From Microcystis aeruginosa NIES-843 (GTDB taxonomy: Bacteria > Cyanobacteriota > Cyanobacteriia > Cyanobacteriales > Microcystaceae), in the NCBI RefSeq assembly GCF_000010625.1, contig NC_010296.1, forward strand, positions 5,220,001 through 5,252,000: DNA of 32,000 nt. Direction: 5' to 3'. The stretch's first letter is position 1; each line of letters begins with the position of its first letter. The notes beneath the pieces are model-generated. The model ran no database searches. It worked only from the letters and a program-made list of their open reading frames with translations, and was not told the origin of the DNA. The position numbers were made by a program, and so were the translations under genes. Positions 5,257 to 26,842 of the stretch are shown in pieces.

Positions 5257-5445
5257 AGGAATTGATCACGAGGGCATGGCCACAGCGACTGTTTTAGTTA
5301 GACTGACCATCTTTGTTTGATGATGGGCAAAAGTTACTATTTATCTTGACCGGCTTGATTCGGGTCAAAAGCCACTTACTACGATAATAGAGATTAAAGC
5401 TGGTGTTTTGTCACTAACTTCTTAATAAAACTTAATATTTTTCTG

Positions 5446-5592
5446 AAGCAGGGAGATGGGAGCAGGGAGTGGGGAGAAGGGGAGAGGGGAGACCAATTCG
5501 TGCGCGTTGCGGGGGGAGATGGGAGCAGGGAGAAGGGAGAAAAAAGCTGACACTGATGACTGATAACTGATAACTGATGACTGATGACTGAC
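5446..5592. repeat. Purine-rich GGGAGA-type low-complexity block followed by a (CTGAYRA)n heptamer run
   Basis: The 19-mer GGGAGATGGGAGCAGGGAG occurs twice (5451-5469, 5514-5532). About 6.5 heptamers CTGACAC/CTGATGA/CTGATAA lie at 5547-5592. Track ORFs here (5422-5676, 5432-5623) are translations of the repeats. Confidence 0.8.
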
Positions 5593-6145
5593 TCCTAACC
5601 CCATATTCGCCAAAGATAAGCAAAATTTATTGATTGATGCCAAAAACTTGAGAATATTTAAATTAACATTCCGCAATATTTATAAATTCTTAAAAATTAA
5701 TTGAGAAAGATTTTTATTTAACAACGATGTTACAATGGTTACAGCGATTTTACTGAATTTCATAATGGAATATTCTGTGCTTTTTTAGGCAGCAATGGTT
5801 GAAACCCTCACCAAACCTAGAAGGTTATCCTAATTAGGACGGGTAAATTAGTCAATTTCACCAACAACGATGATCTTTTTTGTGTGTAGTTTTATTGCAA
5901 AAAAAAAGTTTTTTTGACAAAAAGCACAAAGTATGATATGCACCCAACGTATTTCTGGCTGCCAGTAGTTATTGCAGAGTAGGATGGGGAGAAGGGAGAA
6001 TAAATAAAAATAATCCTCCTGACTGGAAAGAGGGTGTAGGGTGTGGGGTGTGGTGCGATTCGTTGGCTAGAAACTAGACAGTAAGACGTTTAGAGGATTA
6101 GCCGCTTGGTAAATGTAGTACCTTGATAACTTTATAACCCTACAG

Positions 6146-6837
6146 GTGCGGGTTAGTAATAACCTTAGTCCTGTCCTCTAGATGCCTAGAGTGACGGCAT
6201 TTCCTGCTGCTTTAGACTTGGTACATCTGAGGTAGTGAGCGAGGAAAAAAAAGCGGTATCTGATAGCCTAAATCAGAAACCCGTTGAGCCAGAACCTATG
6301 GATAGCCCTGGGGCGAAGATACGAATTAACCATCGTCAACACCCACGAGCCAAAAGGCTGACAGGCTCGAAACAAAAGTTAACAGAGTTGGGGCTGATAG
6401 CTCATACCACTATCAGTAAGGCATTCCCGTTACTCTGTTGTGGACAGTATCATCCTAAGGGTTCAACCAATGGTTATAGGGAACGAAGTAACCCTGATTG
6501 ACTCTGCCCGTTCGGGGCAGTAGGAAACCATCCGCAAGTCAATAGAGGGAGAGGATGTCCTTAAAAGCCAAGGCTTTGAGTAATATCAAAGATATGCTGA
6601 CAAAGGACGGGTAACTAGGAAGTCTAAGCAACAATCAACGGTCATATACGCCCTAAAACCAACAATCTTGTCTGGTGGGGATACAGCCAAGAGGGTTGAA
6701 TAGACAAGGAAATAATAATTCCCATTATTATTCTACTAATGACAGTAGCCTAGTTACTCAGGAGCCGGATACGGCGAAAGTCGTAAGTCCGGTTTTGAAG
6801 CAGGGGGTGGGAAGGCGACTTCCTGCTCTACTGTAAC
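6146..6837 (+). mobile_element. ORF-less group II intron (ribozyme only); 3' end approximate (6831-6837)
   Basis: GTGCG lies at 6146. Domain V at 6762-6795 (GAGCCGGAUACGGCGAAAGUCGUAAGUCCGGUUU) has the AGC triad, a 2-nt bulge and a GAAA tetraloop. A domain VI-like hairpin GGAAG-GCGA-CUUCC lies at 6810-6823, with a candidate branch A at 6830, 8 nt before ...AAC at 6837. Interior motifs resemble bacterial domain I/III (UAUAGGGAACGAAG 6475-6488; UGGGGAUAC). No reverse-transcriptase ORF is present. Confidence 0.75.
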
Positions 6838-6953
6838 GGGTGTAGGGAAGGAAACCTCTTTCATCTGTGGTGGTGAAAATTTTTTCATCAGGACTGACGC
6901 CTGACGACCGACGCCTAACCCCACCAACCAACTTTTTGCCGCAAACCCTAGTT

Positions 6954-7568
6954 ATGTCTGATTTACGTCAATATGCTCCGGCAACAGAACGCAATCGTCA
7001 GCCGATTTTAGAAGTTCTCAGCCAATTTTTACCGAAGACTGGGAATATCCTAGAAATATCTAGCGGCACGGGTGAACACGCTGTTTTTTTTGCTCCTCGT
7101 CTTGCTCCTTGTCGTTGGATTCCCTCGGATTGTAACCCTCTGGCTCTAGATAGTATTCGCAGTTGGTGCGATTATTGTCCTAGTTCTAATCTCGATCGCC
7201 CCCTATTTATCGATGTTCATCAGTCAGTTTGGGCGGTAGAGACGGAAAATATCGTTATTAATGCGATTGTTAATATTAACATGATTCATATCGCCCCTTG
7301 GTCCGCTTGTTTAGCGTTAATGGCAGGAGCGAGTCGCATTCTCAGTCCGGGGGGAATTCTCTATCTTTATGGTCCCTATAAACGACAGGGAAAACATACT
7401 TCTCCTAGTAATGAAAGCTTTGATTTTTCTCTCCGTTCTCAAAACTCTACTTGGGGAGTTAGGAATTTAGAAGATGTGGTGCAAGCAGCGAGCGATCGAG
7501 GTTTACAATTGTTAGAAGTAATTCCTATGCCAGCTAATAATCTCTCGGTTTTATTTCAATTGCCTTAA
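6954..7568 (+). CDS. DUF938-family class I SAM-dependent methyltransferase-like protein
   Basis: MSDLRQYAPATERNRQPILEVL ... LEISSGTGEHAVFFAP ... YLYGPYKRQGKHTSPSNESFDFSLRSQNSTWGVRNLEDV ... MPANNL matches the DUF938 pattern as I recall it. The track ORF starts at GTG 6867 inside repeat DNA, so ATG 6954 is preferred. Confidence 0.75.
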   Translation: MSDLRQYAPATERNRQPILEVLSQFLPKTGNILEISSGTGEHAVFFAPRLAPCRWIPSDCNPLALDSIRSWCDYCPSSNLDRPLFIDVHQSVWAVETENIVINAIVNINMIHIAPWSACLALMAGASRILSPGGILYLYGPYKRQGKHTSPSNESFDFSLRSQNSTWGVRNLEDVVQAASDRGLQLLEVIPMPANNLSVLFQLP

Positions 7569-8879: not shown

Positions 8880-10205
8880 ACATCCTCGCCGCCGTAAAAC
8901 GGACGGCGATTCCCAAACCTCACGATTTGGGTTTCTGCTTCTTTCCCTTGCGGGGTTCCGCACCTGCCTTAACAGATTTACTCTGTTCTGGTCTTATGGT
9001 CGCTCTACAGACTGACACCGCAAGCCCTGCGGCCAAAATATTTTTACTGGCGTTAATATCTCGGTCATGGTGCGTCCCACAGTCTGGACAATCCCATTCT
9101 CGAACATTTAACGGCATTTTCAAGGGCAATATACCCGCAATTACTACACCTTTTAGAGCTAGGAAACCATCTATCTATTTCGATGTAGTTTCTCCCATAC
9201 CAACGGCATTTGTAGGCTAATTGTCGGGTTATTTCTCCCCAGCTTACATCAGATATTGCCTGAGATAATTTCGGGTTTTTGACCATATTCTTAACGGCTA
9301 AATTCTCAACCACAATCGTTTGGTTTTCACGAACTAATTGAGTGGTTAGCTTATGTAAATGGTCTTTTCTACTATCGGTGATTTGAGCGTGAATCCTTGC
9401 TACTTTGATTCTTGCTTTTTCCCGATTTTTTGAGCCTTTCTGTTTTCTAGAAAGATTTTTTTGTGCTTTTCGCAGTCTCCGATAATGCTTTTTAAAATGC
9501 TTGGGATTAGATACTTTATCGCCATCGCTGGTAATCACGAGGCTACTAATTCCTAAGTCAATTCCGATGGCTTTATCTGTTACTGGTAGAGGCTTAATCG
9601 TTGGGTCATCAAATCTAATTGAAATATGCCAACGTCCAGAAGGATGTAATCTGACTGTTACTGTGCTTGGTTCACATCCGTCTGGTATTTGTCTTGACCA
9701 CCGAATAGGTAAAGGTTCTGTGCATTTAGCTAAATAGATTTGTTTGTCTTTAAATTTAAAAGCAGATTTGGTAAATTCGGCACTTCCTCCCTGATGTTTT
9801 TTCTTAAAGTTAGGATACTTAGTACGACCAGCAAAGAAATTAGTAAAAGCTGTTTGTAAATGTCTTAAGCCTTGTTGTAAAGGTACACAGCTAACTTCAT
9901 TGAGAAAGTCTAATTCTTCTTGTTTTTTCCAATCGGTCAACATTGAAGAAGTTTGAGCGTAGCCTACTCTTTCTTGCTTTTCGTACCAAGCTTGTGTTCT
10001 GACATGGAGAGCTTTGTTGTAAACTAATCTTACACAGCCCAAAGTGCGCCGCAATAGCGACTCTTGTGTTGGTGTGGGGTAAAATCGGTAAGAATAGGCT
10101 TTTTCCATGTCTCACATTTTAGCATATATTTCGTAAATGTGCTAATATTTAACAGCAAAGCCGCCGTAAAACGGCGGGGTTTCAGACCCAAATTTTCGAT
10201 GATCA
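8880..10205 (-). mobile_element. IS200/IS605-family element of the tnpB-only (IS1341-like) type; boundaries approximate
   Basis: Similar subterminal hairpins lie in direct orientation at both ends: TCGCCGCCG-TAAAA-CGGaCGGCGA (8886-8909) and CCGCCG-TAAAA-CGGCGG (10161-10177). A single tnpB-like gene lies between them and there is no tnpA (Y1) gene. Confidence 0.75.
8920..10108 (-). pseudogene. tnpB: TnpB (OMEGA/RuvC-like RNA-guided nuclease) gene interrupted by a +1 frameshift
   Basis: ORF 9065-10108 (MEKAYSYRFYPTPTQESLLRRTLGCVRLVYNKAL ... IGIDLGI ... VVENLAVKNM ... CSNCGYIA) continues in another frame as ORF 8920-9129 ([33 protein letters not shown]). Deleting one C from the GCCC run (antisense; GGGC at 9124-9127 on the + strand) restores [17 protein letters not shown] and a ~395-aa protein. 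The zinc-finger second half and the third RuvC motif (HDRDINAS) lie downstream of the shift. Confidence 0.85.
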
Positions 10206-12820
10206 ACAGTAATCACCAACAAGCGATCGAGCTAATGTTAGCATCGGGAGACTATAATCAGTTATTGTTATTTTGTCAACAAGCGCTCGCGGTTCATCCG
10301 GAAGTGACTGATTATTATCCTTATCTGGGATTAGCTTATCTGCTGCTAGAGCAGCAAGCAACAGCGCAAGAAATTTGGTTATTTTGGCTATTACAATCAG
10401 AGTCTAGTCAAGATTTAATTATGCTCCTCAAAAAAGAGATAATTAGAAATCTCGATTGCTGGCAGTTTGGCCAAGCTAAATTAATCTATCTTCAGTGGCT
10501 AGAATTAGAGGAAATAGAAGGGGATGAAGAGATAGAAAATTATGCCCTGACTGCGATAAACTCCTGTCTTCAAGAGGTGCAAGAGGCAATTAATCGGCGA
10601 GAATATACTTTAGCTGAGGACTTTTACTTAAGAATTTTATCTTGGCGTGAACAATTAGCTTACATCTGGCACGATTTAGGATATTTATACTATATAATTA
10701 ACCGACTAACAGAATCTTTTAACTGTTTAGCACGAGCCATAGAATTAGAGGAAAATCAAGCCTTATATCATTATACTATGGCCATGGTGCTAGAAAAGCA
10801 ATCACGTTTAGATATAGCTTTATCAGCTTATCAAAAAGCGATTGATCTCAATCCCAATTTTATCGATGCTTATAACAAACTGGGCAATTTATTTTATAAA
10901 CTAGGGCAGCTAGAGTCAGCCGAAAAATTCTATCAGCAGGGAATTAATAAACAGGGTGATTTTTATCCTTTTTATATCAATTTAGGCAATGTCTATTTAG
11001 TTAAACAAGCTTGGACAGAGGCAAAAAATGCTTATAAAATGGCTCAACAACTGGCAGGAGATAGAGGAGAAATTAGTCAAAATCTCTCCCTTTGGCAAAT
11101 TCTGCAAGCTGACCAAAAAAGAGCGGATCTTTATTCTGGTGATTATTTTTATCAAAGAAAAATCTATCAATTAGCATTAAACTATTATCAAAAATTATTA
11201 GCAATTAAAATAGAGGACAGCAATTTTTATTTAAATTGCGCCCATTGCTATCTCATTGTTAAAGGAGAAAAACAGGCTTTAGAAGTGTATAAAAAAGGCA
11301 TTGCCTATCATCCAGAAAATATTGATTTACATTTGCGCCTAATTTGGTTACTACAAAATAATTATCCGATCGAGGTGGCAATTCAAGCAACTAAATCAGC
11401 TTTAGAGTATCTTCCCGATCACCCATCCCTGAAGTTAGAATTAATGCGGTTAATGCCGATAGTTTACACAACTCAAGCCGATATTATGCAATATCGATCA
11501 AACTACGAGAAACGGTTAGATAATATCTTGGAAAATCTTGATTTAAACACTAATAATCAACAACAAGAGGCTTGGAAAAGTATTGGATTAAGAACTAACT
11601 TTTATCTTCAATATCAAGCGGAAAATGATTTAGAACTACAAAAAAAATATGGAGAATTAGTTTATAAAATTGCCTCGGTTAACTTTCCCAATTGGGTAAA
11701 AAACCTAACCATGCCTACGGGAAAAATTCGCCTTGGCTATATTTCTGCTCACCTGCGTCATCACACAGTAGCGAAACTCTTTCAAGGATGGTTGCAGTGG
11801 CGAAATCGAGAACAATTTGAAATTTATTGTTATGGAATAGATATTAATAACACCTTCGATAATTTTACCAAACAATATCAAGAGCAAAGTGAATATTTTT
11901 ATCAGTTTGATAATCTGGTCAATATGGAAACAATTGCCCAACATATTTTAGATAATCAGTTACATATTCTGGTTTATTTAGATATTGGTATGGATGCTCG
12001 TACTACCCAACTAGCAGGATTGCGTTTAGCTCCAGTACAATGTGTAACTTGGGGTCATCCCATCACCTCAGGATTACCAACCATTGATTATTTTATCTCC
12101 AGTGAATTAATGGAACCCGCGCAGGGAGATAATCACTACAGTGAAAAATTAATTCGCTTATCCAATTTAGGTATTGCCTATGCCAAACCTTCCCTTCCTC
12201 TCCAGAGAAAAACTCGTTTAGAGATGGGATTAGCCGAGGATAAAATTATCTATTTAAACTGTCAGAGTTTATTTAAATATCTGCCAGAAAATGACGATAT
12301 TTTTCCGAGAATTGCCCAACAAGTTCCCAACAGCCACTTTATTTTTATCTGTCATCGTAGCGAATTTGTGACCCATTGCTTTCAGTCGAGATTAAGTCAA
12401 GCTTTTAATAAGTATGGACTCAATTGGCAAGATTACGGGGTAATGATGCCACAATTAGAACAAAATGATTATTTTCAGCTTAACTTATTAGCAGACATCT
12501 ATTTAGATAACTTAAGTTGGTCGGGGGGAAATACCACCTTAGAAGCAATTGCCTGTCAGCTTCCAGTTGTTACCTGTCCGGGGGAATTTATGCGCGGACG
12601 ACATTCCTATGCTATCTTGAAAAGATTAGGAATAACTGATACAATTGCTACGGATAAAAATCACTATATTGAAATTGCTATCCGTTTAGGTTTAGATAAT
12701 CAATGGCGACAAACAATCAAAGATTATACTAAAATGAATATCGATACAGTATTTAACGATCGAACCTCTGTAGAAAGTCTAGAAAGATTTTATCAATCTG
12801 TAGTAGGAGAAGGTAAATAA
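10199..12820 (+). CDS. TPR-repeat protein with C-terminal SPINDLY/OGT-type (GT41-like) glycosyltransferase domain
   Basis: The N-terminal ~500 aa are TPR-like. The C-terminal part matches the COG3914/SPINDLY pattern (RLGYISAHLRHHTVAKL, CQSLFKYLPENDDIF, YLDNLSWSGGNTTLEAIACQLPVVTCPGEFMRGRHSYAILKRLGI). The track ORF start (10064) lies inside the IS. ATG 10199 is preferred, but it sits in an IS-end-like motif, so ATG 10235 is an alternative. Confidence 0.8.
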   Translation: MINSNHQQAIELMLASGDYNQLLLFCQQALAVHPEVTDYYPYLGLAYLLLEQQATAQEIWLFWLLQSESSQDLIMLLKKEIIRNLDCWQFGQAKLIYLQWLELEEIEGDEEIENYALTAINSCLQEVQEAINRREYTLAEDFYLRILSWREQLAYIWHDLGYLYYIINRLTESFNCLARAIELEENQALYHYTMAMVLEKQSRLDIALSAYQKAIDLNPNFIDAYNKLGNLFYKLGQLESAEKFYQQGINKQGDFYPFYINLGNVYLVKQAWTEAKNAYKMAQQLAGDRGEISQNLSLWQILQADQKRADLYSGDYFYQRKIYQLALNYYQKLLAIKIEDSNFYLNCAHCYLIVKGEKQALEVYKKGIAYHPENIDLHLRLIWLLQNNYPIEVAIQATKSALEYLPDHPSLKLELMRLMPIVYTTQADIMQYRSNYEKRLDNILENLDLNTNNQQQEAWKSIGLRTNFYLQYQAENDLELQKKYGELVYKIASVNFPNWVKNLTMPTGKIRLGYISAHLRHHTVAKLFQGWLQWRNREQFEIYCYGIDINNTFDNFTKQYQEQSEYFYQFDNLVNMETIAQHILDNQLHILVYLDIGMDARTTQLAGLRLAPVQCVTWGHPITSGLPTIDYFISSELMEPAQGDNHYSEKLIRLSNLGIAYAKPSLPLQRKTRLEMGLAEDKIIYLNCQSLFKYLPENDDIFPRIAQQVPNSHFIFICHRSEFVTHCFQSRLSQAFNKYGLNWQDYGVMMPQLEQNDYFQLNLLADIYLDNLSWSGGNTTLEAIACQLPVVTCPGEFMRGRHSYAILKRLGITDTIATDKNHYIEIAIRLGLDNQWRQTIKDYTKMNIDTVFNDRTSVESLERFYQSVVGEGK

Positions 12821-22240: not shown

Positions 22241-23770
22241 ATGGTGGAAAATCGAGTTTTTAATACTGGTTCTTTGACTCTAGACACGGAAAAAGAGCAT
22301 ATCTTTGTGTCCGTGACTCCAGACTATCAAAAAGGCCCCGGCATTCAACGGGATGGTATAACTCCTCCCAGAATGCAGGATCCTCATGCAGTGCCGGATA
22401 TAATGTATAATCGACTTGGTCAAATTGCTATTCCTGGCCTAGACTCTACGACCAATGCTTACGAGCAGAGAGCGGGTACTTGGACACTTTATCATCATCT
22501 CAAAGAATTCTGCGATCAGCGAGGACAGGATTGGCTCATTATTGGCGCCCAAGGTTGCGGGGATCTAACGATGAATCCGTGGCATCTTGCCTATCTTGGC
22601 CCTAATTACTACATAAAATCCTTGCAAAATCAATTATGTGGAATGTTTCTCCCCGGAGACCCGCAAGACCCGATCGATCGTCGCATCTATCGGTGTTTGG
22701 TCAAATGGTGTGATGCTATGGCTACACACCTCGGCCATCGTTATGAATTTTTGGATTTAAGGTTTATGGCTGGAGGCGCAAATATAATACAGATTAACGA
22801 TCCGCAAGTGGCTCGCAGATATAATCGTCATTTAGCAGGACTACCGGGATACGATGCTAATTTACAGAATATCGCCCCATTTTTAGAGTTTGCCCTAGGG
22901 GGAAAAACTATCATTCAACAAGGTGATGTGGTTCCCCTATTTACTGCTATCGATCGATTCCAAGATGTACGCCATATTTTTTGCCTGCCTTATCAAATTC
23001 CCTGTGCGGGGAATTTTAGGAGGCAGGGTATTAATACAATTAACTTGGGGGAATATCAACTCTATGGCGATTTGAATGCCAGGCGTGCCGCTTTAAACGG
23101 ACCGATTATCGTAGAAACTCAATTAATTTCTCCCGGTGGTTTTCTGAACATCAATCTGGCTAATCCTGCTGTCGCGAGGGAATTAGATGAACAGCAGTTT
23201 AAACGGGTTGATTTTTCTCCGCGTCGGGCGGGAGAATATTTTCCTTACCCCGGAGGAGATACGGTAGAAATTTACTTTCCCAAGAGCATCTATCCTTTCG
23301 GAATTTTGGGAATGTCCGGTCAAAAAATTATCTGTTTTGCGTCCTCGGGATTATCGGCAAAAATCGGCAATACCCTAGAAGGGATTACCTTAATTATGAG
23401 CGATGGATTCGGTGCGGAAGAAGCGATGGTTTTAGACGAAGGATGTGACGTTTTTCAAATGATCAATCCCATGAGGGATGATCATGCTTTCACTTATACC
23501 AACGATGAATTATTGGATAGAGTGTTAGCCTTTACCCACGATCAAATGCTTTCAGATACGGCTGCAAGCACTAGAAATCCGGTGAATGGTCCCGCATTAG
23601 GTGGAGACATGAGACAATGGCCTCTCAATCAAAATTTATTGAACCAAGTGGAAATTGATTATGGCATTAGAGCAGCTGGTCTAGATTATACAGATATCTT
23701 TCCGGTCAGGTTAAGTCGCTCGCAAATCAGAAGTATTTTGATTGTTGCTGTCCCAAAAAATCCTCAATAG
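22241..23770 (+). CDS. Hypothetical 509-aa protein; C-terminal region possibly phosphodiester-glycosidase (NAGPA/DUF2233)-like
   Basis: A strong RBS (GGGAGGTGTTATG) precedes a long ORF. The only resemblance I can see is GILGMSGQKIICFASSG...GNTLEGITLIMSDGFGAEEAMVLDEGCDVFQMI...RSQIRSILIV against the NAGPA pattern (xxGxxxdGxlxlvvvDG...GxTlxElaxxmxxlGaxxAlnLDGGGS...Rxxxxal.v). This is weak. Confidence 0.6.
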   Translation: MVENRVFNTGSLTLDTEKEHIFVSVTPDYQKGPGIQRDGITPPRMQDPHAVPDIMYNRLGQIAIPGLDSTTNAYEQRAGTWTLYHHLKEFCDQRGQDWLIIGAQGCGDLTMNPWHLAYLGPNYYIKSLQNQLCGMFLPGDPQDPIDRRIYRCLVKWCDAMATHLGHRYEFLDLRFMAGGANIIQINDPQVARRYNRHLAGLPGYDANLQNIAPFLEFALGGKTIIQQGDVVPLFTAIDRFQDVRHIFCLPYQIPCAGNFRRQGINTINLGEYQLYGDLNARRAALNGPIIVETQLISPGGFLNINLANPAVARELDEQQFKRVDFSPRRAGEYFPYPGGDTVEIYFPKSIYPFGILGMSGQKIICFASSGLSAKIGNTLEGITLIMSDGFGAEEAMVLDEGCDVFQMINPMRDDHAFTYTNDELLDRVLAFTHDQMLSDTAASTRNPVNGPALGGDMRQWPLNQNLLNQVEIDYGIRAAGLDYTDIFPVRLSRSQIRSILIVAVPKNPQ

Positions 23771-23939: not shown

Positions 23940-24306
23940 TGAGTTATTACCCTTTGCCGTTCTCAGCAATACTGATGACCCCGAACAGGTGTTAAGTCAG
24001 GTGTCCCGTTCTCTAGAAACTATCTCTCAAAAACGGGTGCAAAGCAATCTCGCTGCCGCTACCAGTATTCTCGCCGGGTTAGTATTAAATCGAGAGACGA
24101 TAAAAAAAATCCTTTGGAGTGACATTATGAGAGAATCAGTCATCTATCAAGATATTTTAGAGGAAGGCAGAGAGGAAGGAGCATTAACCGCTAAATTAAA
24201 CTCTATTCCCCGTTTATTGGCTTTAGGGTGAAGTGTAGAACAAATTGCCCAAACTTTAGACTTAGATATTGAACAAGTACCACAAGTCATTGAGGGACAA
24301 AATTGA
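23940..24306 (+). pseudogene. 5'-truncated Rpn-like gene copy (head B remnant, hinge and tail T1) with an internal TGA
   Basis: 23940-24180 matches 26416-26656 almost base for base, so the first ~135 codons are missing. The frame continues ...YQDILEEGREEGALTAKLNSIPRLLALG*SVEQIAQTLDLDIEQVPQVIEGQN*. The TGA at 24229-24231 corresponds to TTA in the sister relic at 25135-25137. Confidence 0.75.
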
Positions 24307-25128
24307 GTGAAAACGGACAGTATTTTCTATCGTCTCTTTCAGACTTTTCCTGAAAGTTTCTTTGATTTGCTCAATCTTCCCCCAGAAACCGTCAATCATT
24401 ATCAATTTTCCTCCCTAGAAGTTAAACAACTCGCTTTTCGTTTAGATGGGGTCTTTCTTCCTGATAACCTTAATGAACCGATTTACTTTGTTGAGGTACA
24501 ATTTCAAAAAGATGAACGGTTTTACTCGCGCTTTTTTAGTGAAATATTTCTCTATTTTCATCAAAGTGAGAGTAATAACAATTGGCAAGGGGTGATCATT
24601 TATCCTCATCCTGGAATTGAAAATAGTCCCAAATCTCGTTATCAAGAATTCTTTGAGTCAGGACGGGTTAACTGTTATTATCTGAATCAATTAGATGAGG
24701 GGGATTCTCTGGGGGTAAAAGTGTTACAATTAATTGTGGAATCGGAACCAAACACCTTAGCCCAAGGAAAAGAACTGATTCAACAAGTTAGACAACAATT
24801 TCAGGAGTCTTTAAAAAGACAGGACATTCTAGAATTAATTGAGACAATTCTCATTTATAAATTACCGAAATTAAACCGTAAGGAGATAGAAGCTATGTTT
24901 AGTTTAAGTGATTTAAGAGAAACTAAGGTTTATCAAGAAGCTTTAGAGGAAGGAGAATTATCCGCTAAAAAAAGCCTAATTTTGCGTCAGCTAAACTTAA
25001 AGCTAGGTTCTATTCCTTTAAATATAGAACAAAAAATTAAACAGTTAAATCCTAATCAACTGGATAATTTGGCTCTTGCTTTATTGGATTTTTCGGATTT
25101 GGAAGATTTGCACCAATGGTTAAATTAA
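24307..25128 (+). CDS. Rpn/YhgA-like putative PD-(D/E)XK nuclease (DUF2887-type head A, DUF4351-like tail T2)
   Basis: GTG start preceded by GAGGGA. MKTDSIFYRLFQTFPESFF ... YFVEVQFQKDERFYSRFFSEIFLYF is typical of the cyanobacterial DUF2887/Rpn-family head as I recall it. The tail LILRQLNLKLGSIPLNIEQKIKQLNPNQLDNLALALLDFSDLEDLHQWLN is DUF4351-like. Confidence 0.8.
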   Translation: MKTDSIFYRLFQTFPESFFDLLNLPPETVNHYQFSSLEVKQLAFRLDGVFLPDNLNEPIYFVEVQFQKDERFYSRFFSEIFLYFHQSESNNNWQGVIIYPHPGIENSPKSRYQEFFESGRVNCYYLNQLDEGDSLGVKVLQLIVESEPNTLAQGKELIQQVRQQFQESLKRQDILELIETILIYKLPKLNRKEIEAMFSLSDLRETKVYQEALEEGELSAKKSLILRQLNLKLGSIPLNIEQKIKQLNPNQLDNLALALLDFSDLEDLHQWLN

Positions 25129-25212
25129 GTAGGATTAAGTGTAGAACAAATTGCCCAAGCTTTAGACTTAGAAATTGAACAAGTACCAGAAGTCATTGAG
25201 GGACAAAATTGA

Positions 25213-26019
25213 GTGAAAACGGACAGTATTTTCTATCGTCTCTTTGAGACTTTTCCCGAAAGTTTCTTTGATTTGCTCAATCTTCCCCCAGAAACCGTCA
25301 ATCATTATCAATTTTCCTCCCTAGAAGTTAAACAACTCGCTTTTCGTTTAGATGGGGTCTTTCTTCCTGATAACCTTAATGAACCGATTTACTTTGTTGA
25401 GGTACAATTTCAAAAAGATGAACGGTTTTACTCGCGCTTTTTTAGTGAAATATTTCTCTATTTTCATCAAAGTGAGAGTAATAACAATTGGCAAGGGGTG
25501 ATCATTTATCCTCATCCTGGAATTGAAAATAGTCCCAAATCTCGTTATCAAGAATTCTTTGAGTCAGGACGGGTTAACTGTTATTATCTGAATCAATTAG
25601 ATGAGGGGGATTCTCTGGGGGTAAAAGTGTTACAATTAATTGTGGAATCGGAACCAAACACCTTAGCCCAAGGAAAAGAACTGATTCAACAAGTTAGACA
25701 ACAATTTCAGGAGTCTTTAAAAAGAGAGGACATTCTAGAATTAATTGAGACAATTCTCATTTATAAATTACCGAAATTAAACCGTAAGGAGATAGAAGCT
25801 ATGTTTAGTTTAAGTGATTTAAGAGAAACTAAGGTTTATCAAGAAGCTTTAGAGGAAGGCAAAGAGGAAGGCGAGGAAAAGGGAAAAGAAGAAAAAGCCA
25901 GACAAATTGCCCTGAAAATGATATCTGCTGGTTTTCCTATCCCAGAAATCGCCCAATTTACCGATTTATCCCCCGACGCGATCGAGGAATTACAAAGGCA
26001 GAACGCTCGCGATGTTTGA
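25213..26019 (+). CDS. Rpn/YhgA-like putative nuclease (head A, tail T3)
   Basis: The first ~216 codons are near-identical to gene 24307-25128 (906-bp period). After YQEALEEG the tail switches to KEEGEEKGKEEKARQIALKMISAGFPIPEIAQFTDLSPDAIEELQRQ, which is homologous to the tail of gene 26012-26842. Confidence 0.8.
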   Translation: MKTDSIFYRLFETFPESFFDLLNLPPETVNHYQFSSLEVKQLAFRLDGVFLPDNLNEPIYFVEVQFQKDERFYSRFFSEIFLYFHQSESNNNWQGVIIYPHPGIENSPKSRYQEFFESGRVNCYYLNQLDEGDSLGVKVLQLIVESEPNTLAQGKELIQQVRQQFQESLKREDILELIETILIYKLPKLNRKEIEAMFSLSDLRETKVYQEALEEGKEEGEEKGKEEKARQIALKMISAGFPIPEIAQFTDLSPDAIEELQRQNARDV

Positions 26020-26842
26020 TAATATTTGTAAATTTATCGCCGAAAACTTCTCCGATGATCTAGCCACTTGGTTATTGGGTTCTCCCCTCCCCTTAACCGT
26101 CCTCGACCCGACGGAATTACAATTAGACCCCATTCGTGCCGATTCTCTGATTTTTTTGCAGTCAGAGGAATTGATTCTCCATACTGAATTTCAAACCGAC
26201 CCCGACTCCAAGATTCCTTTCCGAATGCTCGATTATCGCATTCGCGTCTATCGTCGTCATCCCCAAAAACCAATGCGTCAAGTGGTAATTTATCTGCGAC
26301 GCAGTGATTCCCCCCTAGTACAAGAAAATACTTTCCGTCTGGGGGAAACTTTTCATTCTTTTCAAGTCATCCGTCTTTGGGAAGAAAATACGCCGCAATT
26401 TTTCCATCAACCCGGTTTATTACCCTTTGCCGTCCTCAGCAATACCGATGATCCCGAACAGGTGTTAAGTCAGGTGTCCCGTTCTCTAGAAACTATCTCT
26501 CAAAAACAGGTGCAAAGCAATCTCGCCGCCGCCACCAGTATTCTCGCTGGGTTAGTATTAAATCGAGAGACGATTAAAAAAATCCTTCGGAGTGACATTA
26601 TGAGAGAATCCGTCATCTATCAAGATATTTTAGAGGAAGGCAGAGAGGAAGGCAGAGAGGAAGGCAGAGAGGAAGGCAGAGAGGAAGGCAAAGAGGAAGG
26701 CAAAGAGGAGGGAAAAAAAGAAAAAGCTCGACAAATTGCCCTAAAAATGCTATCTGCTGGCTTTCATGTCCCAGAAATCGCCCAATTTACTGATTTATCC
26801 CCCGCAACTATCGAGGAATTACAAAGACAGCAGCACAATTAA
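26012..26842 (+). CDS. Rpn/YhgA-like putative nuclease (head B, (EEGR/K)n hinge, tail T3)
   Basis: MFDNICKFIAENFSDDLATWLLG ... DSLIFLQSEELILHTEFQTDPDSKIPFRMLDYRIRVYRRH is an Rpn-family-type head (D...E.Q/K core). The start overlaps the previous stop (ATGTTTGA, 26012-26019). Confidence 0.8.
   Translation: MFDNICKFIAENFSDDLATWLLGSPLPLTVLDPTELQLDPIRADSLIFLQSEELILHTEFQTDPDSKIPFRMLDYRIRVYRRHPQKPMRQVVIYLRRSDSPLVQENTFRLGETFHSFQVIRLWEENTPQFFHQPGLLPFAVLSNTDDPEQVLSQVSRSLETISQKQVQSNLAAATSILAGLVLNRETIKKILRSDIMRESVIYQDILEEGREEGREEGREEGREEGKEEGKEEGKKEKARQIALKMLSAGFHVPEIAQFTDLSPATIEELQRQQHN
26633..26716 (+). repeat. In-frame 12-bp coding microsatellite (GAGGAAGGCAGA x4, GAGGAAGGCAAA x2, one degenerate unit) encoding (EEGR)4(EEGK)2
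   Basis: Perfect units start at 26633, 26645, 26657, 26669, 26681 and 26693. Paralogues have only 1-2 units at the same position (24163-24180; 25852-25875). Confidence 0.9.

Follow-up and report, generated by a model that had tools for sequence, protein, structure and literature searches.

A strain-variable tandem array of Rpn-family genes with a repeat-bearing hinge in Microcystis aeruginosa NIES-843

The window analysed here, a stretch of 32,000 nucleotides (nt) of Microcystis aeruginosa NIES-843 (contig NC_010296.1, positions 5,220,001 to 5,252,000; coordinates below count from its first letter), carries on its forward strand an array of three intact open reading frames (ORFs) and one 5′-truncated copy (Table 1), and all three intact proteins belong to the Rpn family (that is, RpnA–E, YhgA-like and DUF2887 proteins). 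In Escherichia coli, rpn genes code for a toxic endonuclease, RpnL, and for a small antitoxin, RpnS, which is made from an internal start (Zhong et al. 2023, PMC10400941). The original prediction, made from the letters of this DNA, had described the array as it is found here, including the overlap of genes 2 and 3, which lies within ATGTTTGA in both the ORF list and the sequence. Each gene joins one of two N-terminal heads (A or B; B′ denotes the truncated copy) to one of three C-terminal tails (T1, T2 or T3) across a hinge, and we name the combinations accordingly (for example, A-T2). The B′-T1 fragment has, on top of its 5′ truncation, an in-frame TGA at 24229–24231; tblastn places B′ on residues 136–207 of head B, and its left truncation is also present in M. 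viridis NIES-102 (locus L001) and, roughly, in BLCC-F210 (L003). For T1, translation agrees with the peptide that had been read previously.

Table 1. Coordinates of the genes, gene parts and predicted internal starts of the array
Feature	Position	Strand	Description and basis
Gene 1	24307–25128	+	273 amino acids (aa), GTG start; head A (DUF2887, D47/E63/Q65) and tail T2 (DUF4351)
Gene 2	25213–26019	+	268 aa, GTG start; head A and tail T3 (HTH_Rpn_C type), repeats KEEG-EEKG
Gene 3	26012–26842	+	276 aa, ATG start; head B (D44/E59/Q61), (REEG)4(KEEG)2 and tail T3
5′-truncated head B (B′), residues ~136–214, hinge YQDILEEGREEG included	23941–24180	+	96% identity to 26417–26652
Tail T1 (helix-turn-helix (HTH) type) of the upstream fragment, inactivated by an in-frame TGA	24181–24306	+	Translation
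Insertion specific to T2, made up of the DUF4351 codons, the TAA stop and one base more	24970–25129	+	Alignment with A-T1 of locus L007
T1 3′ relic, displaced end of the original A-T1 tail	25130–25212	+	Translation, L007 alignment, five-strain junction
12-nt tandem repeat AGAGGAAGGCAG, 6.5 copies, coding for four-residue repeats	26632–26709	+	Tandem Repeats Finder
Gene 1 predicted internal start (AAGGAG 24880–24885, 9-nt spacer, ATG 24895)	24880–25128	+	77-aa RpnS-like product
Gene 2 predicted internal start (AAGGAG 25786–25791, ATG 25801)	25786–26019	+	72-aa RpnS-like product; register of gene 1, offset by 906 nt
Gene 3 predicted internal start (GGAG 26589–26592, 7-nt spacer, ATG 26600)	26589–26842	+	80-aa RpnS-like product
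Fragment GGAG 24116–24119, in-frame ATG 24127–24129	24116–24231	+	34-codon RpnS-like remnant to the TGA at 24229–24231; sequence

Membership of the Rpn/YhgA-like family, as put forward in the original prediction, is borne out by profile searches: genes 1, 2 and 3 score 70.3, 116.4 and 115.2 bits, respectively, against NCBIfam TIGR01784 (Rpn family recombination-promoting nuclease/putative transposase), for which the curated cut-off is 52.1 bits. Head A is a full-length match to DUF2887 (PF11103; 260 bits, E 1e-77), and head B gives weak matches to PF11103 and PF04754. The D…ExQ residues are kept in both heads, with D47, E63 and Q65 of head A invariant among 70 aligned homologues, and D44 and Q61 of head B invariant among 74 (E59 is at least 90% conserved there). 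The two heads are distant homologues, as hhalign aligns them over their full length (97.9% probability, E 5e-13, 17% identity) with the D/E/Q motif residues in register. This agrees with the published account of DUF2887 and YhgA (PMC3045609), which treats them as PD-(D/E)XK nucleases that use ExQ as motif III and possess both a long helix and a C-terminal HTH. AlphaFold models of genes 3 and 1 (mean predicted local distance difference test scores of 85.8 and 82.4) have an alpha/beta core leading into a long helix that runs through the hinge and on to short helices; in the gene 3 model, a single long helix spans residues 201–248 and is followed by two short ones. Foldseek against the Protein Data Bank (PDB) returned only weak best matches (XisH for gene 3, E 0.028; EndoMS/NucS for gene 1, probability 1.0, E 0.033), and the weak top matches are mostly PD-(D/E)XK nucleases, with Nt.BspD6I, EcoO109I, Cap4, BamHI and TnsA also among them; single-sequence searches of the PDB were near noise. 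The gene 1 protein is identical in NIES-102.

Of the tails, T2 is a full-length DUF4351 match (66 bits, cut-off 25), as had been suspected. T3 gives weak matches to HTH_23 and HTH_40, precomputed annotations place PF27070 (HTH_Rpn_C) on the NIES-102 orthologues and many homologues, the profile of the head B family matches the crystallised RpnA-S (7TH0; E 0.025), and T3 itself is 42% identical to RpnA-S over 33 residues. T1 and T3 seem to have diverged from a single HTH tail, given their common G[LF]S[VI]xEIAQxxDL residues and a T3/T1 chimera in locus L005. In that chimera, a relic ORF at L005 14885–15073 (array strand), the start of a T3 tail (KSRQIALKMLFAGFS) is joined to the end of a T1 tail (VPRLLVLGLTREQIAQ...), which suggests recombination inside the tails besides the hinge as well as T1/T3 homology. 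Identical tail types sit on heads of just 17% identity: T3 is found on both heads in the window, and T1 is found on B′ in the window, on head A in L007 and many Microcystis proteins, and on an intact head B in the metagenome contig L096. Protein searches show head A, at 82–97% identity, carrying T1, T2 or T3 within Microcystis; head A proteins of other cyanobacteria usually end in a T1-type tail, and head B relatives have mostly HTH tails (with 1–14 repeats) and in a few cases T1-like or DUF4351 tails. The T2 tail alone, used as a query, returned six short Microcystis proteins; the two that were checked are tail parts of A-T2 genes with heads disrupted or cut by contig ends, and so not clearly independent genes.

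Similarity within the array stops at the hinge. In ungapped comparison, 24224–24953 and 25130–25859 (period 906 nt) differ at 8 of 730 positions and identity ends directly after GAGGAAGG (EEG codons), as the original prediction had it; the match of the B′ fragment to head B of gene 3 (23944–24179 against 26417–26652) also holds, with 10 mismatches in 236 positions and identity ending after the EEGREEG codons. The T3 copies at 25851–26001 and 26680–26830 are 88% identical. Breakpoints had been placed at YQ[ED][AI]LEEG, and all of them do lie at or just after YQxxLEEG, except that the DUF4351 tail is joined five codons past the hinge. What that reading overlooked, although it located the hinge correctly, is the repeat nature of the hinge and a conserved internal start nearby. 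A tract of 12-nt (four-residue) repeats begins here: the hinge forms its first unit, as the AGAGGAAGGCAG repeat of gene 3 shows. The hinges of A and B genes have TATCAAGA and TTTAGAGGAAGGCA in common, plus further 12-nt units, and expanded (REEG)n tracts lead to longer identical stretches between them. Head/tail junctions are always found within or beside this tract. For the tract of gene 3, the number and type of the repeats differ in every strain compared, and no two B-T3 copies have the same tract; A-T2 orthologues have 0, 0, 0, 2, 3, 4 or 4 repeats.

Just upstream of the long helix, both heads carry a candidate internal translation start. M197 is invariant in the 70 head A homologues and in the 74 head B homologues. 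In genes 1 and 2 the Shine–Dalgarno-like AAGGAG is made up by K-E codons 9 nt before this ATG, and LEEG begins 16 residues on; in gene 3 and the fragment, GGAG is made up by R-S codons 7 nt before the ATG, and LEEG begins 10 residues on. The window repeats thus begin 10–16 residues after the internal Met, and the published range is 8–20. In L003, the counterpart of the RpnS-like ORF of the fragment is open through T1. We examined codon usage at the head B site in 80 metagenome loci encoding head B relatives, of which 29 were kept as representatives sharing under 85% nt identity in the surrounding sequence. For the Arg at −4, 29/29 of them use AGG or CGG, against an Arg background of 22% in the same ORFs, and GGAG or GAGG lies 5–16 nt upstream in 27/29, against 4.4% at other in-frame head positions; most copies with Ser TCN instead of AGY have TTG as the preceding Leu codon, giving back GAGG. 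For head A, the Microcystis copies have (A/C/G)AGGAG 9 nt before the ATG, as do four out of five loci from other cyanobacteria, with GAGGAA in the remaining one, and 24 Nostocales DUF2887–DUF4351 orthologues have GAGGAG or CAGGAG followed by the ATG and 0–8 repeats. This synonymous-site pattern is hard to explain without selection on the RNA.

To compare strains, the orthologous locus was anchored on the adjacent aminotransferase gene in 12 further Microcystis species representatives, in which many contigs end inside the array; anchoring on the 509-aa gene upstream of the array, using peptide patterns, retrieved nothing from the GTDB representative genomes. The array adjoins the same aminotransferase gene in 12/12 of these representatives and in NIES-102, where it lies between the same flanking genes as in the window. 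B-T3 is present in one to three copies depending on the strain: NIES-102 has three, each with a different repeat tract, compared with one in the window, and BLCC-F210 has two together with an uninterrupted B′-T1 tail ORF. In L005, L006, L011 and L012, the full B-T3 gene is followed by an intact, short stand-alone gene that consists of B(184–207), repeats and T3 and begins 11 codons ahead of the internal Met; this is the counterpart of the small downstream copies of E. coli. A-T1 stands upstream of A-T2 in L007, L096 has an intact B-T1 gene, and one A copy is frameshifted in L005. In NIES-102, an IS630-type insertion interrupts the B′ fragment and another insertion lies in the second A gene. 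The cross-strain comparison that the original prediction had called for therefore has a mixed outcome: copy number, repeat number and stand-alone tail genes differ and both A-T1 and intact B-T1 occur, but head–tail combinations and their order are largely unchanged in the other strains examined. Because combinations and order are so largely alike, exchange is historical rather than rampant; the view of tails as exchanged cassettes keeps the support of tails common to heads of 17% identity.

Several neighbouring observations were made along the way. The ~190-nt insertion in the second head A gene of NIES-102 (L001 11008–11198) splits it into an N-terminal ORF of 65 aa and one of 249 aa with a new start within the head, and may be a miniature mobile element. 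An IS630-family transposase (HTH_Tnp_IS630 and DDE_3) is encoded in the window at 1132–2037 (−), and a transposase with the same DDE_3 domain breaks the B′ fragment of NIES-102 (L001 8560–9735). Among the Nostocales loci (L021–L077), many carry a DUF2887–DUF4351 gene with 0–8 repeats on the minus strand ~7 kb from the aminotransferase match; in L038, L052 and L057 it is directly followed by a further DUF4351 fragment that comprises the tail only.

The near-identity of the 730-bp pair stands, but it does not reflect a fresh duplication: the junction between the T2 stop and the T1 relic is common to the window, L001, L003, L005 and L011, strains whose heads differ by a synonymous divergence (dS) of ~0.18, which rules out a recent 906-bp tandem duplication. 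Between the two A heads of the window dS is 0.008; within-strain A head pairs are 99.5% (window), 97.8%, 96.7% and 96.3% identical, and most pairs between strains 94–97%. Given the shared junction, the arrangement is old and the near-identity is due to gene conversion, the tract of which stops at the hinge, where homology stops. Alignment with the A-T1 gene of L007 places ~160 nt (DUF4351 and its stop) in gene 1 where L007 has 28 nt of T1, between GCTAAA and TAGGATTAAGTG, so that the replacement sits just after GELSAK, five codons past the hinge. Gene 1 thus arose from an A-T1 gene by internal replacement, and as DUF4351 and its stop took the place of the inner part of T1, the 3′ end of T1 was left as the relic. 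This relic had been described as in frame immediately after the TAA of gene 1, which is true here and in NIES-102 only (owing to one extra G); its frame does not match that of gene 1 in L003, L005 and L011, and read-through of gene 1 into it is rejected on this ground.

At the protein level, the tail of gene 2 and its overlap with the B start that follows are the same as the B-T3|B junctions in NIES-102. This fits a deletion that ran from the hinge of an A gene to that of the B-T3 gene after it; fusions of the reciprocal type are represented by B-T1. From these junctions we infer that recombination acts at the hinge. Between paralogues that are otherwise unrelated at the DNA level, the sole homology consists of the 12-nt repeats with the conserved sequence that flanks them (TATCAAGA..TTTAGAGGAAGG). 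Slippage within the repeats would change their number, and unequal or ectopic recombination between them would fuse a head to the tail of the next gene, alter copy number and leave 5′-truncated tail-only genes. Up to the hinge, gene conversion keeps the heads of the two A genes nearly identical.

Most of these features have precedents. The RpnA–E proteins of E. coli were reportedly treated by Kingston et al. in 2017. The more recent study of these systems found a four-residue repeat 8–20 residues after the RpnS Met, the strain-variable number of which decides RpnL–RpnS specificity, a ribosome-binding site and start of rpnA that are encoded by K240, E241 and M244, and arrays that come from tandem duplication; tail-only rpn copies occur downstream (separately encoded RpnS is annotated as DUF4351 in some species) and can vanish when an rpn N-terminal domain becomes fused to the region of the downstream small gene (PMC10400941). 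The window genes resemble E. coli RpnA–E and the plasmid-borne RpnP2 in having a PD-(D/E)XK head with ExQ, a long helix and a small helical or HTH tail, and E. coli Rpn in the internal ribosome-binding site and ATG, the sequence of which lies in K-E or R-S codons (seen here at the sequence level), the strain-variable number of 12-nt repeats 10–16 residues after the internal Met, the tandem arrays with downstream tail-only copies and head/tail fusions, and the resemblance of T3 to RpnA-S. They differ in their cyanobacterial host, in heads that fall into DUF2887 or a subfamily without a name, and not into PF04754, in the combination of two head subfamilies with common tails in one array, in the three tail types at one locus (an in-frame DUF4351 among them), in heads that evolve in concert and in a locus outside a defence island. 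DUF2887 (PF11103) was predicted to be a PD-(D/E)XK nuclease by Laganeckas et al. 2010 (PMC3045609) and Steczkiewicz et al. 2012 (PMC3424549), and head A shares with the published family the full-length match, ExQ as motif III, the long connecting helix and the C-terminal HTH; internal start, repeat tract, tail swapping and arrays are not noted in either paper. DUF4351 (PF14261) also occurs as small stand-alone proteins; T2 matches it over its full length but follows, in frame, the hinge of a DUF2887 head and was gained by replacing part of an HTH-type tail. The four-residue TAEL repeats of EcoR124I and EcoR124II HsdS offer a parallel in that repeat copy number within a helix changes specificity (per PMC10400941), although HsdS is a type I restriction specificity subunit of unrelated sequence and architecture. 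Variable tails, hinge, arrays and relics were thus already described for Rpn systems in 2023, and the array represents no new kind of system; what is new is the cyanobacterial setting, the two distant head subfamilies with common tails in one array, the in-frame DUF4351 replacement, the concerted evolution of heads, and the codon-level evidence for an internal start in three cyanobacterial subfamilies.

On the basis of these likenesses, we consider it probable (at roughly 70%) that the locus is a strain-variable tandem array of Rpn-family, RpnL/RpnS-like toxin–antitoxin genes that most likely serve in phage defence. Each gene would consist of an N-terminal PD-(D/E)XK-type head with D…ExQ, a long helix and a small helical tail, with a conserved internal ribosome-binding site and ATG just upstream of the helix. 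By analogy with E. coli Rpn, two products per gene would be made, a full-length toxic nuclease (RpnL) and an RpnS of ~70–80 residues; the RpnS tail protein would bind and block RpnL, and the number of four-residue repeats in the helix would decide how tail proteins and nucleases are matched. Selection maintains the genes, given that the ratio of non-synonymous to synonymous divergence (dN/dS) of the heads between strains is 0.02–0.20. In 50,697 phage records, tblastn with genes 1 and 3 found no match, and that collection therefore gives no hint of tail mimics or of copies carried by phages. Immediately upstream of the array, at 22241–23770 (+), lies the 509-aa ORF mentioned above, which has no Pfam or PADLOC match and of which the NIES-102 copy is 99% identical.

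Several points weigh against this proposal. Rpn proteins are very common, and a toxin/antitoxin role in phage defence has been shown experimentally for E. coli members only. The neighbourhood of the array consists of housekeeping genes rather than a defence island, although for Rpn association with defence islands is an enrichment and not a defining trait; PADLOC had no match for the Rpn proteins or the adjacent 509-aa ORF, and its 2023 library may lack Rpn. The fold matches are weak (E > 0.01), the PDB offering no full-length Rpn structure as comparator, and draft or metagenome assemblies may misstate copy numbers through collapse or chimerism. As regards the internal start, cyanobacteria lean less on Shine–Dalgarno sites than E. 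coli does, so the motif could partly reflect constraint on the R-S or K-E residues, although the codon-level bias speaks against residue constraint as its source. The representatives are related to one another, so that a nominal binomial P overstates their independence. In a promoter and terminator scan, the internal promoter signal did not exceed that of shuffled sequences, a result that says nothing either way.

The alternative that we take most seriously, while thinking it rather unlikely, is that the tails are mainly DNA-binding specificity modules and not antitoxins, the long helix and HTH resembling the E-helix and HTH of gamma-delta resolvase; repeat number would then tune spacing or oligomer geometry, and a tail swap would retarget nuclease or recombination activity. 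Laganeckas et al. 2010 (PMC3045609) indeed inferred that the C terminus of DUF2887/YhgA is homologous to the resolvase HTH, with a long helix as the connection, and the helical arrangement of our models and the weak HTH_23 and HTH_40 matches of T3 agree with this, as does the finding, cited by Zhong et al. (PMC10400941), that TAEL repeat number in EcoR124I/II alters the recognised spacer. Nevertheless, the conserved internal ribosome-binding site and ATG argue that the tail also acts as a separate protein, stand-alone tail genes with intact ORFs are kept in several strains, and in E. coli the tail protein blocks the nuclease (PMC10400941); specificity-module and antitoxin roles are, moreover, compatible with each other.

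A cluster of decaying paralogues that has lost its function, with the mosaic a by-product of unequal crossing-over between repeats, would account for the truncated pseudogene and relic in the window, the insertion sequence and other insertions in two NIES-102 units and the frameshifted A copy in L005. We regard this as very unlikely in view of the low dN/dS of the heads, the three intact ORFs kept in the window, the intact state of most units in complete genomes and the synonymous-site conservation at the internal start, which implies selection. Hardly credible, finally, is that the genes are transposases of an unrecognised mobile element that built the array by repeated insertion: the historical annotation as ‘putative transposase’, weak matches to an ISNCY transposase model and the multi-copy occurrence of the family in cyanobacteria (relatives are carried by 25 plasmids) point that way, but the constant aminotransferase neighbour does not, a repeat search found no terminal inverted repeats around the units, the unit boundaries lie inside coding sequence at the hinge, and Zhong et al. 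found no evidence for autonomous transposition (PMC10400941).

At the sequence level, the published hallmarks of Rpn systems (internal start, variable four-residue repeats, tail-only genes and arrays) extend to cyanobacterial DUF2887 and DUF4351 proteins. Dozens of Rpn copies are labelled just ‘Rpn family / putative transposase’ in cyanobacteria. The Microcystis strains form a compact natural series that varies in head, tail and repeat number, which could be used to test antitoxin specificity and repeat-driven rearrangement and is relevant to the dynamics of Microcystis and cyanophages in blooms. A bolder and distinctly doubtful extension is that the 12-nt hinge is a built-in recombination hotspot that reshuffles heads, antitoxin or specificity tails and repeat number, so as to vary the toxin–antitoxin repertoire of a bloom-forming cyanobacterium under cyanophage pressure. 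Were this true, the ‘recombination-promoting’ nucleases themselves might initiate the reshuffling events, and A-T2 and A-T3 (with near-identical heads), together with T3 on both A and B, might form a cross-regulating network.

Other features of the locus and window may be recorded briefly. In the metagenome contig L168, another A-T2 cluster (2–1735 and 2187–2801) adjoins a DUF938 gene, and Microcystis strains may on this account have a second site of rpn arrays; the DUF938 gene in the window (6867–7568) has no rpn neighbour. Just upstream of it, the gap at 5257–6866 comprises 1.6 kb without an ORF of at least 100 aa, and contains at 6760–6837 (+) an Rfam match to group II introns (RF00029; 55 bits, gathering score 40) that could be an ORF-less or degraded group II intron. 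An IS605 OrfB/TnpB-like ORF at 9065–10108 (−), with OrfB_IS605 and Cas12f1-like TNB domains, overlaps the listed TTG start of a 918-aa TPR and GT41 glycosyltransferase ORF (10064–12820, +), the true start of which is probably further downstream.

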